A stretch of 60,902 bases of DNA from Lachnospiraceae bacterium (GTDB taxonomy: Bacteria; Bacillota; Clostridia; Lachnospirales; Lachnospiraceae), in assembly GCA_041855735.1 (NCBI GenBank), contig JBHAEV010000154.1:1-60902 (forward strand), written 5' to 3'. The notes beneath the pieces were generated by a model. The model ran no database searches. It worked only from the letters and a program-made list of their open reading frames with translations, and was not told where the DNA came from. The translations under genes were made by a program, and so were the position numbers. Every line of letters starts with the position of its first letter. Position 1 is the first letter of the stretch. Shown here piece by piece: positions 55,683 through 60,642 of this stretch.

Positions 55683-56573
55683 ATGAAAGGAATTGTGCTT
55701 GCCGGAGGCAGCGGCACCCGATTGTATCCGCTGACCATGGTGACCTCCAAACAACTTTTACCGATTTATGATAAACCGATGATTTATTACCCGATTTCCG
55801 TACTCATGCAGGCAGGCATTCGTGAAATCCTGATCATCTCCACCCCGGAAGACACCCCGAGATTTAGGGAGCTGCTCGGAAACGGAAGCCAGTTCGGTCT
55901 GGAGCTGAGCTATGCCGTTCAGCCAAAGCCCGAAGGACTGGCACAGGCTTTCATCATCGGTGCGGATTTTGTCGGCGACGACCCGGTTGCCATGATTCTC
56001 GGCGACAATATCTTCCAGGGACAGGGATTGTCCGAACATCTTTTGGATGCGGCGAAGAAACAGGTCGGCGCAACCGTATTCGGATACTATGTGGACGATC
56101 CGGAGCGTTTCGGCATCGTGGAATTCAACAGCGAAGGAAGGGCGATTTCCATCGAGGAAAAGCCGGAAAAACCGAAGAGCAATTACTGCGTGACCGGTTT
56201 GTACTTCTACGACAACCGCGTTGTGGAATATGCCAGAAATCTGAAGCCGTCCAAACGAGGAGAACTGGAGATCACGGATCTGAACCGCATCTACCTGGAT
56301 GCTGGCGAATTGGACGTGAAAGTTCTGGGGCAGGGCTTTACATGGCTTGACACCGGTACCCATGAAAGTCTGGTCGAAGCCACCAATTTCGTTTACACAT
56401 TGGAAACCCATCAGCACCGCAAGATTGCCTGTCTGGAAGAGATCGCCTATGTCAACGGCTGGATCACGAAAGAGGATGTGGAAAAGTCCATCGAAGTGTT
56501 TAAAAAGAACCAGTACGGGAAATACCTCAAGGATGTACTGGACGGAAAGTATCTGGACAAGATAAAAAAATAA
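55683..56573 (+). CDS. rfbA: glucose-1-phosphate thymidylyltransferase
   Basis: [18 protein letters not shown]...[16 protein letters not shown]. 296 aa. Confidence 0.93.
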
Positions 56574-56770
56574 TACAATGGAAACTTCTTTTTTGGTGCG
56601 GTCCATCGCAGATAAAAGCAGTGGTCGATAACCATATTGGAAAATATATCCCTGCAGAACTTATGAACCCGACTATAAACGGCTGATGATCGAAGCCTCG
56701 ATTGCAAAGTCCCCCCCTCATGCTTGCAGAGCAAAAAAAGGGGGGAATCAAGCAATCGGAAGGATATGCT

Positions 56771-57694
56771 CTACACCATCGTCAGTCGATTCAACAAATC
56801 TGAAACTATACCCGGATCCTCCATCAGCGATATTCCAAAACATTTCTTCCCTGCATCCTTTATGGATGCTCCAATATGATAAGCTGTTTTTCTATCCAGG
56901 ATAAGGAACCTGTCATGGAACACATGCGTCCTTTTGACCGTCAAAGTCGGGTACTGCGCATTAAAGGTAGCCTCATCCTTTTTTGTGAGCTGTGCACTCG
57001 CATATGTATAAATCTTCACAGCTGTGCCTTTATTCTTCTTCAACAAAATGTTCAAAGTGTCAATGTCAACATAGCCGTCAATCAAGATAATCTCATTCTG
57101 CGCTTTTTTTATGATATCTGTGATCAGACGAAAAGCATCATATATCTGACCATCAAAGAATACCTTTTGTTTTGCTTCCGCACGATCTTCAATATACCGG
57201 AAAACTTTGTCAAATTTCTCATCTGTGCTTCTCTGATACTCCAGCTGCTTCAATTCTATGTTGCTGACTTTCTCAAACAGCAGCGTATTATTAGCGATAA
57301 ACCTTCGAATTTCAACAAATGTATTCATTATCCGAATTGATACCTGAATCGCCACATCGCTCCTAAGAACCCCGGAAAGCATTGCGATTCCTTGCTCTGT
57401 AAACATGTATGGTCTATATCTTCTGCCGCCTCTCCCATTTGAGGTTGCAATCTGTGACCTCAAAGCATCAAATTCATCTTTTGTAAGCTGGAATCTGAAA
57501 TTCTCCGGAAAACGTTCTATATTTCTGTTTACAGCTTGATTTAAGGCCTTTGTTTCAACTTGGTAAAGCATCGCAAGATCTCTATCGAGCATAACTTGTT
57601 GCCCACGAACCACATATATTAGACTCCGAATATCCTTGATATCTGCCATTACAGGAATACTCTCTGTCGATTGCATCCGCTCATTTTTCGCCAT
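56771..57694 (-). CDS. ORF6N (KilA-N-type) DNA-binding domain protein with conserved C-terminal HDRFLILD...HIGASIKDAGKK domain
   Basis: The N-terminus IYVVRGQQVMLDRDLAMLYQVETKALNQAVNRNIERFPENFRFQLT...RSQIATSNGRGGRRYRPYMFTEQGIAMLS is the ORF6N signature. I prefer the ATG at 57694 (SD GGAGGTG, 5-nt spacer). An in-frame upstream ATG at 57751 exists. Confidence 0.75.
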   Translation of the reverse strand: MAKNERMQSTESIPVMADIKDIRSLIYVVRGQQVMLDRDLAMLYQVETKALNQAVNRNIERFPENFRFQLTKDEFDALRSQIATSNGRGGRRYRPYMFTEQGIAMLSGVLRSDVAIQVSIRIMNTFVEIRRFIANNTLLFEKVSNIELKQLEYQRSTDEKFDKVFRYIEDRAEAKQKVFFDGQIYDAFRLITDIIKKAQNEIILIDGYVDIDTLNILLKKNKGTAVKIYTYASAQLTKKDEATFNAQYPTLTVKRTHVFHDRFLILDRKTAYHIGASIKDAGKKCFGISLMEDPGIVSDLLNRLTMV

Positions 57695-57707
57695 TTGCAC
57701 CTCCACG

Positions 57708-57734
57708 TTTGAGGTCACAAATTGTGACTTCAAA
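57708..57734. promoter_or_regulatory. 27-nt palindrome TTTGAGGTCACAAATTGTGACTTCAAA just upstream of the ORF6N SD
   Basis: Near-perfect dyad centred on GTCACAA-A-TTGTGAC. A related copy lies inside the CDS at 57438-57464. Confidence 0.6.
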
Positions 57735-57811
57735 TAATTTCTAAAGTTCATTTTTCTCTATATGAATAATTGTATCTATCAACAATGCCCAGATCAAGAT
57801 TATTCCTAATC

Positions 57812-57842
57812 CGGTCAATACCAAATTCCGTGGTATTGACCG
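57812..57842 (-). terminator. perfect 11-bp hairpin between the GTPase-like gene and the ORF6N gene
   Basis: CGGTCAATACC-N9-GGTATTGACCG, 43 nt after the stop at 57885. There is no clear T-tract. Confidence 0.4.
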
Positions 57843-57884
57843 ATTCATATGGTTACAAAGTCCGGGTTGTACGCAAGATTGAGA

Positions 57885-60020
57885 CTATATGATAATAAAT
57901 GATTTGTTAACCATATCCGTCATTAACTGATTTAATTCAGCAACGAGGATTCTTGCAAAATTCGTACTTCCAAAAAACAAGCAAAAATATTCTTGCAACT
58001 TTCTCATAGCGCCATCATAGCCAGGAGTGCCATTATAAATATTTATAAGTTCCCGCCTCAATTCCGGATTACCAAATGACAGGTTATAAGCAACCCTATC
58101 CATCAGCGAAGCAAATCTTGAAACATCATTGAAGAACTCTTTATAGAATTCATATAGTCGCTGCAACGCAATATTCCTTTCTCCCAAAGCCGGATTAAGC
58201 CCAACCATAATCCCATTGCTTCCAAGAAGAGCTTTTGCTAACTCTGTAAGTCCATCATCGTTAAGGTTGTTTGCTGTGAACTTCACTGCACTCTTTTCAT
58301 CAAACTTGGTAAATGAATCAAAGGTATTGGATAATATTCTCTTGAGAAGCCCTTTCATATTTATAGAAAAGTTTCCAAACTCCGATGCTCTTGTTGTATG
58401 TCCTAATCCAATAGCAAGATTATTCCAATAACAAGCTACACTTCTGCCATGTATTCTAGGTGTTCTATCACTGATGACATAACCGTTTACTATGTTTTTA
58501 TCCTTAGAAAGGATATGCTTCATGGCATCAATTTCAGGTTTCATCATATCGGGATCAATTTCAACCTGTATAGCCGGTTTATCCGGATCAATAGCGGTAA
58601 CAAAAATCGGACTTTTTACTCCAGCCGGCAAACTACTGCTTAAAGTTTTCATTGAATAATCAACTATTTTCTCGAACAAACCTTCCGGTTCAAAATTCCG
58701 CTTTCTATTGTCGCCTGCCAACGCTTTTAAAACATAGCTGTCCTTCAGGTATCTCATTGAAATCCAATCCACTTCTTCTTTTGGAAGATCTTCAGCATAC
58801 AATTCTACCATCTTTTCGATCTCTGTTAACACACTTTGTATGTTCTTTGAGTAGCTGTCTTCATCAATGTACAATTTCCCTGCATTATGCTTATTGATAA
58901 GGTTCTCTACCATCCTATCCGCCTTTGAAAAAAGAACATACACAGGAATATTTAAATTTCTTTTATTCAGTTCATCCTTCTTTTCTGCAAGTGCTTTACA
59001 ACAGTCTTTTAATATATCGTCTCGCTCATCAAGACTCATTAAAAATAGAATCGTGTCTGCTTTACAATTTAGCGCTGCTTCCAATGAGTCTTTTGTTGTT
59101 TCTGCATCCGTTCCTTTCTGAGTAAGTCCCATTGTATCTCTAATACAAAACCTGAAAGGAAGCTCCGGCGAGTTAGTTTTTGCAATTTCAATTAGTTCTT
59201 GACGAGGTCTACACGATATTGAAATATGCTCAATTACCAAACTATAAGGTGCAAGTGGATCAAATATAGTCTTTAAAACATGACCGCCATCGCCACTATC
59301 ACCTAGATCATATTTCAGTATTTTCTGTCCAAGTATTTCATCCCCAAGCTTATCTACTAAATCTTTCTCTACGATCTCTCCGATCTTATTTAGCCATTTA
59401 ACATAATCGGATTTAATATCATCCGGCGTTTCCTCAAACATCTCCTCCAAAATCAACTCTCTTATCTCCTGAAGCTTCACCTTCTTACTCTTGAGGGTAA
59501 TTTTTCGTTCCTTTACTTTATCCTCAAATCCATGATTCAAAATATAGTTAAGAACAGGATCCAGTGCATTCAAAAGATCATTTAAGGAAATCGCACATTT
59601 TATGTTTTTAAGATGATAATGTGCCTCTTCTGGTTCAAGAATTTGCTCAAATACTTTATTATCAAATGCAGCGAGTATCTCTTTTGCATCACAATCATAC
59701 TTTCCAATTAAATCCGTTAGGACGGAAAGAATCGCTATGTGGATGTCTTTACCTGAATAATCCTTCTTGAAAATCTGGATTGCAAAAGCTCCGGCATTTT
59801 CAATCCTCTCATCAAAGCAAAATTCACATGGTATAATTGTAGTTTGGCTCTTATCTCCAATTCCAATTTGCATAAACGGAATGAGTCTGTGATTTAATAA
59901 TAGATAAATTAGCGTACTTTTTCCCGAGCCTGATGGTGCAACAACCACAAGTTGTGGTGCTGAACTCTTTCTCATAAGAGCAGATTCTGCTGTAATACCA
60001 TTGTTTTGTTTTATTTTCAT
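57885..60020 (-). CDS. orphan 711-aa P-loop GTPase-like protein (dynamin/TRAFAC-like motifs, function unknown)
   Basis: Strong SD AAAGGAGA. G1 is APSGSGKST (aa 28-36). A switch-I-like DKSQTTIIP lies around aa 56-64. G3 is DTMG (aa 295-298). G4 is SKAD (aa 365-368). The gene is AT-rich. Confidence 0.75.
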   Translation of the reverse strand: MKIKQNNGITAESALMRKSSAPQLVVVAPSGSGKSTLIYLLLNHRLIPFMQIGIGDKSQTTIIPCEFCFDERIENAGAFAIQIFKKDYSGKDIHIAILSVLTDLIGKYDCDAKEILAAFDNKVFEQILEPEEAHYHLKNIKCAISLNDLLNALDPVLNYILNHGFEDKVKERKITLKSKKVKLQEIRELILEEMFEETPDDIKSDYVKWLNKIGEIVEKDLVDKLGDEILGQKILKYDLGDSGDGGHVLKTIFDPLAPYSLVIEHISISCRPRQELIEIAKTNSPELPFRFCIRDTMGLTQKGTDAETTKDSLEAALNCKADTILFLMSLDERDDILKDCCKALAEKKDELNKRNLNIPVYVLFSKADRMVENLINKHNAGKLYIDEDSYSKNIQSVLTEIEKMVELYAEDLPKEEVDWISMRYLKDSYVLKALAGDNRKRNFEPEGLFEKIVDYSMKTLSSSLPAGVKSPIFVTAIDPDKPAIQVEIDPDMMKPEIDAMKHILSKDKNIVNGYVISDRTPRIHGRSVACYWNNLAIGLGHTTRASEFGNFSINMKGLLKRILSNTFDSFTKFDEKSAVKFTANNLNDDGLTELAKALLGSNGIMVGLNPALGERNIALQRLYEFYKEFFNDVSRFASLMDRVAYNLSFGNPELRRELINIYNGTPGYDGAMRKLQEYFCLFFGSTNFARILVAELNQLMTDMVNKSFIII

Positions 60021-60037
60021 TTTCTATCTCCTTTTCG

Positions 60038-60073
60038 ATATTTTTTCTTCTATTTCTATATTTTTTCTTCTAT
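60038..60073. repeat. direct repeat ATATTTTTTCTTCTAT x2 (20-nt period) immediately upstream of the GTPase-like gene SD
   Basis: Exact 16-mers at 60038-60053 and 60058-60073. Confidence 0.85.
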
Positions 60074-60103
60074 AATTTACAAGCTTTCATAATTGTTCAG
60101 ACA

Positions 60104-60183
60104 TAAAAATACCCCCTTGTTAAATGATTTTCAGCAAACCAATCCAACAAGAGGGTACAAAAAAACTGTGCTTTCATGCACAG
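60104..60183 (-). terminator. two tandem minus-strand rho-independent terminators
   Basis: Terminator 1 is CTGTGC-ATGAAA-GCACAG followed by TTTTTTTG (60159-60183). Terminator 2 is CCCTCTTGTT-N24-AACAAGGGGG followed by TATTTTTAT (60104-60155). Confidence 0.7.
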
Positions 60184-60310
60184 CAACATTCGTATCTCAC
60201 GTCCGTCGCTCACATATTTTAACGGAATTCGTTAAAATAATATAAGGATCTGACTTTCAACTCATCGCCCCGATGGAACGCATCTCGTTGGTCAGTTTTC
60301 TGTATTCTTC
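60159..60310 (-). ncRNA. candidate ~150-nt structured small RNA (unassigned family)
   Basis: It is bounded by the promoter at 60317-60345 and the terminators at 60104-60183. It contains the hairpins CTGACCAAC...GTTGAAAGTCAG and TATTTTAACG-N5-CGTTAAAATA (60215-60239). I see no ORF with a credible SD. Confidence 0.25.
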
Positions 60311-60316
60311 TGTTAT

Positions 60317-60345
60317 ACGATATCAAAGATTCATCCTTATGTCAA
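60317..60345 (-). promoter_or_regulatory. candidate sigmaA promoter TTGACA-17-TATCGT with A/T-rich UP-like tract
   Basis: On the minus strand the -35 is at 60340-60345 and the -10 at 60317-60322. It is preceded by AAAATAAAAAATAAAAAAAGAAAA. Confidence 0.4.
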
Positions 60346-60642
60346 TATCATTTTCTTTTTTTATTTTTTATTTTATACCACCTATACCTAGGGTTTAACA
60401 CTATATTGTTTCATAGTTGATTTCATATTGGTTTATCGAAAGGGGCATCAAATTATCCTAATACGACAGCCCCTTTCACTTGTCAAACTAATCACTGTGT
60501 GAACCCGTATGGGAGAGCTTTTCTTTGCGAATGAAGTGCCACGACATCATCCGAAAGGGAGGTTTTCAAACCCTCGCTTCATTTCCGGTTTGTAATCCTT
60601 TTTGAACTGCGAGGTGACTATTACAAGATAACATATAGTGTG

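Follow-up and report, generated by a model that had tools for sequence, protein, structure and literature searches.

A low-GC islet between rfbA and nrdG of a Lachnospiraceae bacterium: an ORF6N gene and a probable dynamin-like GTPase gene preceded by a conserved structured leader RNA

Bacterial dynamin-like proteins such as SynDLP, IniA, DynA and LeoA are large GTPases with helical domains, and one report assigns DynA of Bacillus subtilis a role in phage resistance. T-boxes, riboswitches and other attenuation leaders of Bacillota combine a promoter, a sensor-like domain, a terminator, a hairpin masking the Shine-Dalgarno (SD) sequence and mutually exclusive helices. Finally, type III (ToxIN) and type I (hok/sok) toxin-antitoxin (TA) systems join a harmful gene to a non-coding RNA; in the ToxIN layout a terminator lies between the RNA and the toxin gene. 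Here, we describe an islet in a 60,902-nucleotide (nt) stretch of DNA from a Lachnospiraceae bacterium (contig JBHAEV010000154.1, termed “the window” below), which holds an ORF6N (KilA-N-type) gene and a gene for a 711-amino-acid (aa) GTPase preceded by a structured leader RNA. We consider it fairly probable that the islet comprises two unrelated, self-contained modules, and that the second consists of a promoter, a switch leader that holds expression off and a dynamin-like GTPase, most likely a conflict effector.

The 711-aa protein shares its large size and helical domains with the dynamin-like proteins, SynDLP and IniA being its best structural matches, and as with other dynamin-like proteins and the Eleos system its gene belongs to the accessory genome and sometimes lies beside defence genes. 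It differs from them by a helical insert of ~170 aa in the G domain and by the absence of a paddle or hydrophobic segment, and it alone is preceded by a dedicated structured leader RNA. No PADLOC model matches the protein at E ≤ 1, which bears on Eleos (LeoA/LeoBC) on the assumption that the PADLOC library includes the Eleos models; nor does a LeoB/C-type partner or a tandem dynamin-like protein occur among 133 open reading frames (ORFs) flanking GTPase genes. The leader resembles the attenuators and riboswitches of Bacillota in all the parts listed above, yet it accompanies a single protein family, has no Rfam match and no known ligand, and adds two putative serial locks and a pseudoknot between its 5’ end and the loop of the hairpin at the ribosome-binding site (RBS). 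With ToxIN and hok/sok the cassette has in common that a probably harmful gene is directly preceded, on one transcript, by a terminator and a non-coding RNA, and that RNA complementarity occurs beside the RBS; in contrast to hok/sok, the complementary RNA resides on the same strand and transcript rather than being antisense, and the protein is not a small membrane peptide. The ORF6N module is of a kind already known, a catalogued candidate defence family. The novelty lies in the RNA-plus-GTPase cassette, a variant that joins an attenuator-type leader to a dynamin-like GTPase.

The islet (56574..60642, 4,069 bp, not assigned to a strand) fills the interval between the stop codons of the convergent genes rfbA and nrdG. 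Domain matches confirm the identity of both flanking genes (NTP_transferase for rfbA, Fer4_12/radical-SAM activase for nrdG). The GC content of the islet is 0.373 versus 0.470 for the remainder of the window, and because none of 263 equal-sized segments elsewhere on the contig (mean 0.470, standard deviation 0.015) drops below 0.43, the islet ranks ~6.5 standard deviations low. The AT-richness reported in an earlier annotation made from the letters of the window (the “original prediction”) is therefore borne out, and the GC content at third codon positions (GC3) agrees: 0.316 in the GTPase gene and 0.422 in the ORF6N gene, compared with 0.57-0.63 in rfbA, trpS and luxS. Four contigs of a related species (comparison loci L053-L056; RfbA 92% identical, DNA 76%) retain the gene order luxS-rfbA-nrdG-nrdD-amylase with an rfbA-nrdG spacer of only 55 bp, which holds one bidirectional terminator hairpin. 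Homology to these island-free relatives extends precisely as far as the rfbA stop codon (56573) and restarts inside nrdG (60672). A further contig (L051), 99.7% identical across 5.9 kb, has both island genes. The 4.07-kb interval is a horizontally acquired insertion, as had been predicted, and it is not conserved in all relatives.

Both minus-strand ORFs of the original prediction are present, at 56771-57751 (with an internal start at 57694) and at 57885-60020 (711 aa), and so are their SD sequences, which can be read directly from the DNA: GGAGGTG (57698..57704, minus strand) precedes the ATG at 57694, and AGGAG (60028..60032, minus strand) precedes the ATG at 60020. What did not hold up is the view of the two genes as a single cassette. 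A two-component defence or addiction system could be proposed, since the genes are adjacent, co-oriented and part of the same inserted interval, and since the 99.7%-identical assembly carries both. Yet no ORF6N homologue was found at any of ~50 other GTPase loci examined, the GTPase gene is absent from the ORF6N loci examined, and each family is met without the other in many unrelated contexts. Moreover, the two genes have separate SD sequences, an intervening hairpin and distinct GC3 values, and the leader belongs to one of them only. We regard a joint system as very improbable; the islet is made up of two independent single-gene modules. Apart from the leader, the GTPase gene has no steady companion: the 133 flanking ORFs, drawn from 28 GTPase loci, include no recurrent protein partner.

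The constant partner of the GTPase gene is an RNA. An alignment of the window with three relatives, one of them at 40% protein identity, revealed a conserved non-coding block of ~220 nt upstream of the gene. The upstream non-coding stretch measures 622 bp, of which about 240-260 bp represent a conserved promoter and a structured leader; the length (~620 bp) and richness in hairpins originally described thus stand, whereas repeats are modest and amount to one 20-bp tandem repeat in two copies (60033..60073, no strand assigned), which occupies the place of an optional 69-aa ORF in sister loci. Searches with nhmmer placed the leader directly upstream of the GTPase gene at every locus for which upstream sequence was available (34 hits, E 1e-65 to 5e-5). 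A covariance model of the leader core, termed R1, matched each GTPase locus exactly once (43 matches in 626 kb, E 1e-21 to 4e-9) but did not match the island-free loci, the ORF6N-only loci or the remaining window; in the window, the leader core itself (60176..60302, minus strand; 81.2 bits, E=4.7e-14) is the sole match in 60.9 kb. A metagenome scan with a pattern restricted to the RNA core gave 13 places: 11 were followed by a GTPase homologue, one was cut by a contig end, and one (L044), the only candidate for an RNA motif without the GTPase gene, was dismissed as a chance match, since it falls within the high-GC coding sequence of an acyl-CoA synthetase. No Rfam 15 family matches the leader, either in the window at E ≤ 1 or at ten divergent loci at the gathering score, and a coding region or leader peptide was rejected, as numerous stop codons interrupt the reading frames both in the window and at locus L001. 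Accordingly, this leader is an uncatalogued structured RNA and the only constant partner of the GTPase gene, linked exclusively to this family: among the loci examined, no genuine copy was found without that gene.

The leader elements all lie on the minus strand of the window. The best promoter-like site of the region in a consensus scan is a near-consensus sigma-A promoter (60317..60345), which consists of TTGACA, a 17-nt spacer and TG-n-TATCGT; TTGACA/TATAAT-like boxes are conserved in the same place across loci. The 5’ strand of the leader, termed S1 (GAAAACUGA; 60292..60300), is common to two mutually exclusive helices, the outer part of P1 and a long-range pairing with the loop of the hairpin H2. 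The P1-P2 arm (60250..60295) comprises a long covarying P1, an invariant internal loop CRAGA/UGAG enclosed by it and a small P2; 98-100% of cells are paired in both helices, and a single position can show as many as six pair types. A kink-turn reading of the internal loop was tried and is retained as a suggestion only, since the loop could form tandem G·A pairs, yet its bulge would have 2 nt instead of 3. The hairpin P3 follows (60207..60248), the sequence of which differs between clades while the hairpin is kept; its outer helix is 89-92% paired with 2 compensatory pairs. A conserved GUAUGCGGC-type segment (AUGUGAGCGAC in the window; 60205..60215) has two possible partners, the 5’ side of P3 and the 5’ arm of the terminator T1, and is a putative antiterminator. 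T1 (60159..60184; GCUGUGC/GCACAG followed by U7) was flagged as an intrinsic terminator by a terminator scan. All cells of its 6 pairs are paired, 4 pairs show compensatory changes, and G·U outnumbers A·C by 13:0.

Downstream of T1, the hairpin H2 (60111..60156) pairs an anti-SD arm (ACCCUCUUGUU) with an SD-like arm (AACAAGGGGGU, of the type AAGGGGG), after which come a U-run and an ATG. In its 10 pairs 99% of cells are paired, 3 pairs carry compensatory changes, and the G·U:A·C ratio is 26:0. The loop of H2 contains the 3’ partner of the long-range pairing (60134..60142), which forms a 9-bp helix with S1; 8 of the 9 pairs form in the window. In most clades, including distant ones, the SD and ATG at H2 belong to the GTPase gene itself. 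In the clade of the window they start a mini-ORF of 3-5 codons (here MSEQL*, 60087..60104, the start of which comes after the SD sequestered by H2), and the GTPase gene has its own SD ~80 nt further on.

The covariation behind the helices of this architecture, the two mutually exclusive ones included, is unusually clean. In 27 full leaders, 97% of the cells of the combined P1-P2-P3outer-T1-H2 structure are paired compared with 26-49% when the partners are slid, 14 pairs show double-sided changes, and 0 of 500 shuffles attain the covariation score. When 40 distinct core sequences are aligned to the covariance model, 91.8% of cells are paired versus 19-46% when slid, and 10 of 16 pairs are doubly changed. 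RNAalifold on a raw MAFFT alignment missed this core, which was resolved by column scans and the covariance model. The leader copy of the window folds at -75.9 kcal/mol (z=-7.0). The 9-bp helix between S1 and the H2 loop covaries as well, with 7 of 9 pairs doubly changed, up to six pair types and 95% of cells paired, and four of its S1 nucleotides also serve P1-outer as 5’ strand. Both of these helices covary although they exclude each other, and hence both are under selection, a hallmark of a conformational switch. The leader is a conserved structured domain followed by an expression platform (T1 and H2), the alternative pairings of which covary.

The same 9-bp complementarity also admits a reading at the DNA level, in which an inverted repeat of 9-11 bp (S1 and the H2 loop) serves as an invertible switch that flips the terminator segment, a kind of phase variation known from cwpV of Clostridioides difficile. 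Such a switch would suit the layout, in which two inverted repeats between promoter and gene enclose a terminator-containing segment of ~190 bp, as well as the covariation of the repeats. However, the segment has the same orientation relative to the gene in 47 of 47 copies, the repeats are short, and no linked recombinase recurs near the GTPase loci. The imperfect pairs of the helix on the transcribed strand are overwhelmingly G·U (37) rather than A·C (5), which places selection at the level of RNA rather than DNA, and G·U far exceeds A·C in every leader helix. Based on this asymmetry and the uniform orientation we rejected DNA inversion, to which we assign next to no probability, and retain the reading of a switch at the RNA level.

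The protein downstream of this RNA switch is encoded by a large minus-strand gene (57885..60020) and, judged by its motifs, qualifies as a bona fide GTPase of the TRAFAC class. The motifs comprise G1 [AG]xSGSGKST (more precisely [AG]PSGSGKST), G2 with TT60-61, G3 DTMG295-298 and G4 [ST]KAD365-368. In an alignment of 15 sequences down to 37% identity, K34, T60/T61, D295-G298, K366 and D368 are invariant, and the C-terminal motifs HGRSV and YGNFSINMKG are conserved; moreover, one relative has a precomputed PF01926 match. An AlphaFold2 (AF2) model of good quality (pLDDT 86, pTM 0.87) predicts a G domain (approximately residues 20-85 and 263-420) interrupted by the ~170-aa helical insert, and an all-helical C-terminal domain (421-711). 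The best Foldseek matches of this model are dynamin-like proteins (SynDLP, 7.5e-6, and IniA, 1.3e-4), followed by IRG, G-alpha, mitofusin and GIMAP and, in BFVD, by dynamins of giant viruses; SynDLP, IniA and the viral dynamins together span E 7.5e-6 to 1e-3 at a probability of ~1. The GTPase-like call of the original prediction is therefore upheld, with G1, G3 and G4 invariant or nearly so. The model suggests that the protein acts like, and probably descends from, dynamin-like large GTPases, although formal membership is not established.

Fold matches to proteins of eukaryotic immunity are secondary (IRG/GM4951, GBP, GIMAP, Mx and G-alpha, at E~1e-2). The likeness to G-alpha extends to a helical domain inserted in the G domain, and the stalk of MxA is the best, non-significant match of the C-terminal domain. 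A relationship at the sequence level between eukaryotic immunity GTPases and the 711-aa protein was not detected, and these fold matches are too weak to claim membership.

As had been anticipated, the protein belongs to no named family or system: searches against Pfam, NCBIfam, PHROGs and PADLOC returned nothing significant beyond noise at the level of the P-loop, and PDB sequence and profile searches likewise gave P-loop-level matches only. A word-indexed search of 5.8e9 proteins found 97 clusters of relatives, and an exhaustive profile search of 1.84e9 found 130 representatives, nearly all 650-750 aa long; in neither set is any relative named. The matches in genomes all derive from Bacillota (Lachnospiraceae, Hungatella, Roseburia, Clostridium, Paenibacillus, Desulfosporosinus and others), except for one metagenome-assembled genome (MAG) labelled Bacteroides. 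A phage origin is not supported, as no relative was found in the viral contigs of IMG/VR. The GTPase family is small, unnamed, restricted to Bacillota and previously undescribed.

In the proposed working of the second module, a strong constitutive promoter would drive a structured leader of ~200 nt and the 711-aa dynamin-like GTPase, and two serial locks within the leader would keep the gene off. The first lock would be the terminator T1; because P1/P2 and P3, the two arms of the folded core, immediately precede it, an RNA of ~150 nt would be the end product of most transcription events. The second lock would be H2, which would pair the anti-SD arm with the SD for downstream translation, such that read-through RNA stays untranslated. 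S1 would alternate between P1 in the core and the H2 loop, and the GUAUGCGGC segment between P3, likewise in the core, and the terminator’s 5’ arm. Some cue would then remodel P1/P3, thereby permitting read-through, unmasking of the RBS and synthesis of the GTPase, which as an effector would act by GTP-dependent self-assembly, like the dynamin-like, IRG and GBP immune GTPases. The leader probably keeps the GTPase gene switched off. Locking this tight and twofold points to a costly or toxic GTPase, and the protein is probably harmful or costly if made constitutively.

That the GTPase is most likely a conflict effector, of the anti-phage or abortive-infection type, we infer from the behaviour of its gene, which is sporadic, low in GC, insertion-polymorphic and repeatedly located beside restriction-modification (R-M), TA, TIR, AbiJ-kinase, MADS and insertion sequence (IS) genes, and which also lies next to a transfer-messenger RNA (tmRNA) gene. 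In full, the neighbours of the GTPase cassettes include type I R-M, AbiJ-kinase, TIR, ParE/Phd, MADS, PemK and Schlafen-AlbA_2 genes, IS elements and a tmRNA gene. If the cassette instead carried an ordinary small-molecule riboswitch in front of a niche physiological protein, with a function for example in membrane maintenance or stress and none in conflict, much of the leader anatomy would look the same: the build is aptamer-like, with two covarying arms, invariant unpaired CRAGA/UGAG nucleotides, a terminator, an SD-sequestering hairpin and alternative pairings, and membrane repair is a known function of DynA, IniA and similar dynamin-like proteins of bacteria. We consider this explanation unlikely, since the RNA, unlike most metabolite riboswitches, was never found with another gene family and matches no family of Rfam, and since the gene is sporadic, AT-rich, absent from close relatives and in several genomes adjoined by R-M, TA, TIR and IS genes.

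A second alternative retains the harmful GTPase and shifts the action of the RNA from cis to trans. The terminated leader of ~150 nt would be the functional partner, an abundant small RNA from the same promoter, either as a type I-like antitoxin that pairs through its 5’ strand with the H2 loop of rare read-through mRNAs or as a type III-like antitoxin or ribonucleoprotein component that binds the GTPase, and the GTPase would be freed when host transcription collapses during infection. In favour of this reading, the near-consensus promoter leads into a structured RNA that is stable and ends in a terminator of efficient appearance, the 9-bp complementarity between the 5’ strand of the RNA and a loop beside the RBS covaries strongly, and RNA and GTPase family are strictly co-inherited. 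Yet each read-through mRNA carries this 5’ strand itself, and therefore intramolecular pairing in cis accounts for the covariation without any action in trans. Furthermore, a ToxI-like antitoxin was rejected, as the leader has no tandem-repeat array and the 711-aa GTPase is no endoribonuclease; neither is it a small membrane toxin. Overall, a role in trans appears rather doubtful, and the cis-acting, off-holding switch in front of a GTPase conflict effector is preferred.

A more specific form of the preferred reading, which we put forward tentatively and rate well below the general one, regards leader and GTPase together as an RNA-gated immune module. A constitutive, mostly terminated RNA would be the sensor and/or the antitoxin of the GTPase effector, which would be released upon a phage-linked cue, for instance when transcription is shut off, when RNA decays or when a phage factor binds to the leader RNA. 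The cue would bring about read-through and RBS unmasking, or the protein would be freed from the RNA. If true, such a module would constitute a same-strand, single-promoter RNA-protein abortive-infection system without a described counterpart.

Several observations weigh against an off-holding leader and a dynamin-like conflict effector. With regard to the RNA, H2 in the clade of the window masks the SD of the mini-ORF and not that of the GTPase gene, and translational control would therefore be indirect here; the antiterminator pairing of the GUAUGCGGC segment with the T1 5’ arm is 88% paired without double-sided changes and is merely compatible with the data; and both the direction of switching, with off as the default, and the cue are what we infer. 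With regard to the protein, global TM-scores of the model against dynamin-like structures are low (~0.24), and the match to Pfam Dynamin_N is sub-threshold (E=0.076, 13.5 bits with a cut-off of 27). The GTPase contains no recognisable effector domain: its C-terminal 291 aa have no Pfam match, and the C-terminal domain modelled alone by AF2 has no significant Foldseek match, the best being the MxA stalk (E=0.16). A membrane-like hydrophobic segment is absent (maximum KD19 1.43, at the P-loop strand), and no curated defence model matches the protein (PADLOC, 0 hits at E ≤ 1). Finally, the neighbourhoods of the GTPase genes are only partly defence-like and often are surface-polysaccharide loci.

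The GTPase family encompasses ~100-130 sequence clusters; gut Lachnospiraceae contribute many of them, and cultured type strains contribute some. Should the RNA prove to be a switch, it would represent a new orphan class of regulatory RNA with an experimentally tractable read-out, since only one gene has to be followed for termination and translation. Should the GTPase prove to be a conflict effector, bacteria would offer a further case in which GTPases of the dynamin, IRG and GBP kind are tied to immunity, and gating at the RNA level would join the known checks on toxic defence effectors. Cultivable carriers include Hungatella hathewayi WAL-18680, Sporofaciens musculi WCA-9-b2, Roseburia porci, Clostridium nigeriense, Paenibacillus agri and Desulfosporosinus hippei DSM 8344, and therefore these hypotheses are directly testable.

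The first module of the islet is the minus-strand ORF6N gene (56771..57694, 307 aa), the KilA-N-type assignment of which, made originally from the translation, is corroborated by Pfam (ORF6N, 2e-36). Its true start likely is 57694, because the gene call in L051 gives 307 aa and the PADLOC profile alignment starts near that residue. The PADLOC model PDLC04869 matches the protein over its full length (E=6.6e-128; residues 28-323, profile positions 4-300 of 306), and three other models of the same candidate single-gene family, PDC-S05, match at 1e-38 to 1e-57; by these profile matches the protein is a member of PDC-S05. A representative of this family reduced the plating of phages T7 and T5 ~1000-fold in Escherichia coli (bioRxiv 10.1101/2024.09.26.614923). 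The tested representative is described with a Virulence_RhuM domain and possibly belongs to another sub-family than the ORF6N protein of the window; the likeness lies in the full-length profile match and in a family that occurs as a single gene in variable contexts. A defence role, which had been suggested for the islet as a whole, thus finds support for the ORF6N gene only.

The ORF6N protein family is very large, with 81-85% identity across genera such as Hornefia and Stomatobaculum, and homologues stand alone elsewhere, one within a WYL/PLD-helicase/Fic island and one inside a surface-polysaccharide locus. The C-terminal half of the protein contains an HDRFLILD-x7-GAS motif (residue 260), in which R replaces the K of HxK. 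A PLD (HKD) nuclease is defined by the motif HxK(x)4D(x)6G(S/G)xN together with a match to the PLDc profile; Pfam PLDc gave no match to the protein at E ≤ 1, and the DrmC profile matches weakly (E=0.0033). Given this weak match and HxR in place of HxK, the weakly PLD-like character of the C-terminal half is a lead rather than a finding.

A number of smaller observations concern the surroundings of the GTPase cassettes (coordinates are given as comparison locus:position). An AbiJ_NTD3-protein kinase fusion is located inside a type I R-M operon near the cassette in L002/L003 (L002:13909-15174), and a TIR-domain protein occurs with DUF2971 and ParE/Phd in L004-L006 (L004:15465-16394). In D. hippei DSM 8344, a tmRNA gene (Rfam RF00023, 112.7 bits; L014:5062-5413) lies ~350 nt upstream of the GTPase leader. 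The tmRNA gene ssrA is a classic integration site of genomic islands, and its position beside this leader fits mobility of the cassette. In an Intestinibacillus MAG, a gene for an IS110-family transposase (426 aa; L019:4322-5602) has landed in the stretch that runs from the 3’ end of H2 to the start codon of the GTPase gene, which parts the leader from the GTPase gene by 1.8 kb and destroys the SD/ATG junction. A gut-2 RNA (Rfam RF02990, 53.9 bits; an orphan small RNA motif) is found in a Butyrivibrio MAG ~150 nt downstream of the GTPase stop codon (L023:7374-7421), and neither at nine other scanned loci nor in the window.

The 69-aa ORF between leader and GTPase gene is confined to one sub-clade of Lachnospiraceae (for example L002:7773-7982, L004:7771-7980 and L007:5750-5956). 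It is intact only in L002-L007, decayed in L012 (5844-5960), absent in the window and in L008-L011, and has no Pfam match; evidently, it is dispensable.

Both island gene families recur in or near surface-polysaccharide or dTDP-rhamnose loci, as at the rfbA flank of the window (55683-56573), at L058-L060 and at several GTPase loci. In Stomatobaculum the ORF6N gene is surrounded by Epimerase, GLF, GtrA and RfbC genes, and Epimerase, GDP_Man_Dehyd or RmlD genes adjoin 3-4 GTPase cassettes. This recurrence may reflect insertion hot spots only.

Within the islet, the ~300 bp from the leader promoter to the nrdG stop codon (60346-60642) are common to no other locus. They contain a 9-bp GC-rich stem with a 22-nt loop (GAAAGGGGC, 60477-60469, and GCCCCTTTC, 60446-60438) and an 8-bp stem around 60590-60530, which may be a displaced nrdG terminator or insertion scars. 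The hairpin between the two genes (57812..57842, minus strand; arms 57812-57823 and 57831-57842) begins 43 nt past the GTPase stop codon and is perfect as originally described, with a stem of 12 bp instead of 11 and a 7-nt loop. It was not scored by the terminator scan and lacks a U-tract, and therefore it is no canonical intrinsic terminator; it may be a transcript-end or stabilizer hairpin.

Inside the ORF6N coding region, an Rfam match to sucC RNA (56931-56989, minus strand; 22.8 bits versus a gathering score of 50, E=0.13) was taken as chance. A 28-nt palindromic element (containing GTCACAAATTGTGAC) is situated at 57708-57735, directly upstream of the ORF6N SD, and a second copy, 86% complementary, is found 243 nt away within the coding region (57437-57464). 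The palindrome could be an operator for autoregulation by the DNA-binding KilA-N/ORF6N domain, or a hairpin in the 5’ untranslated region.

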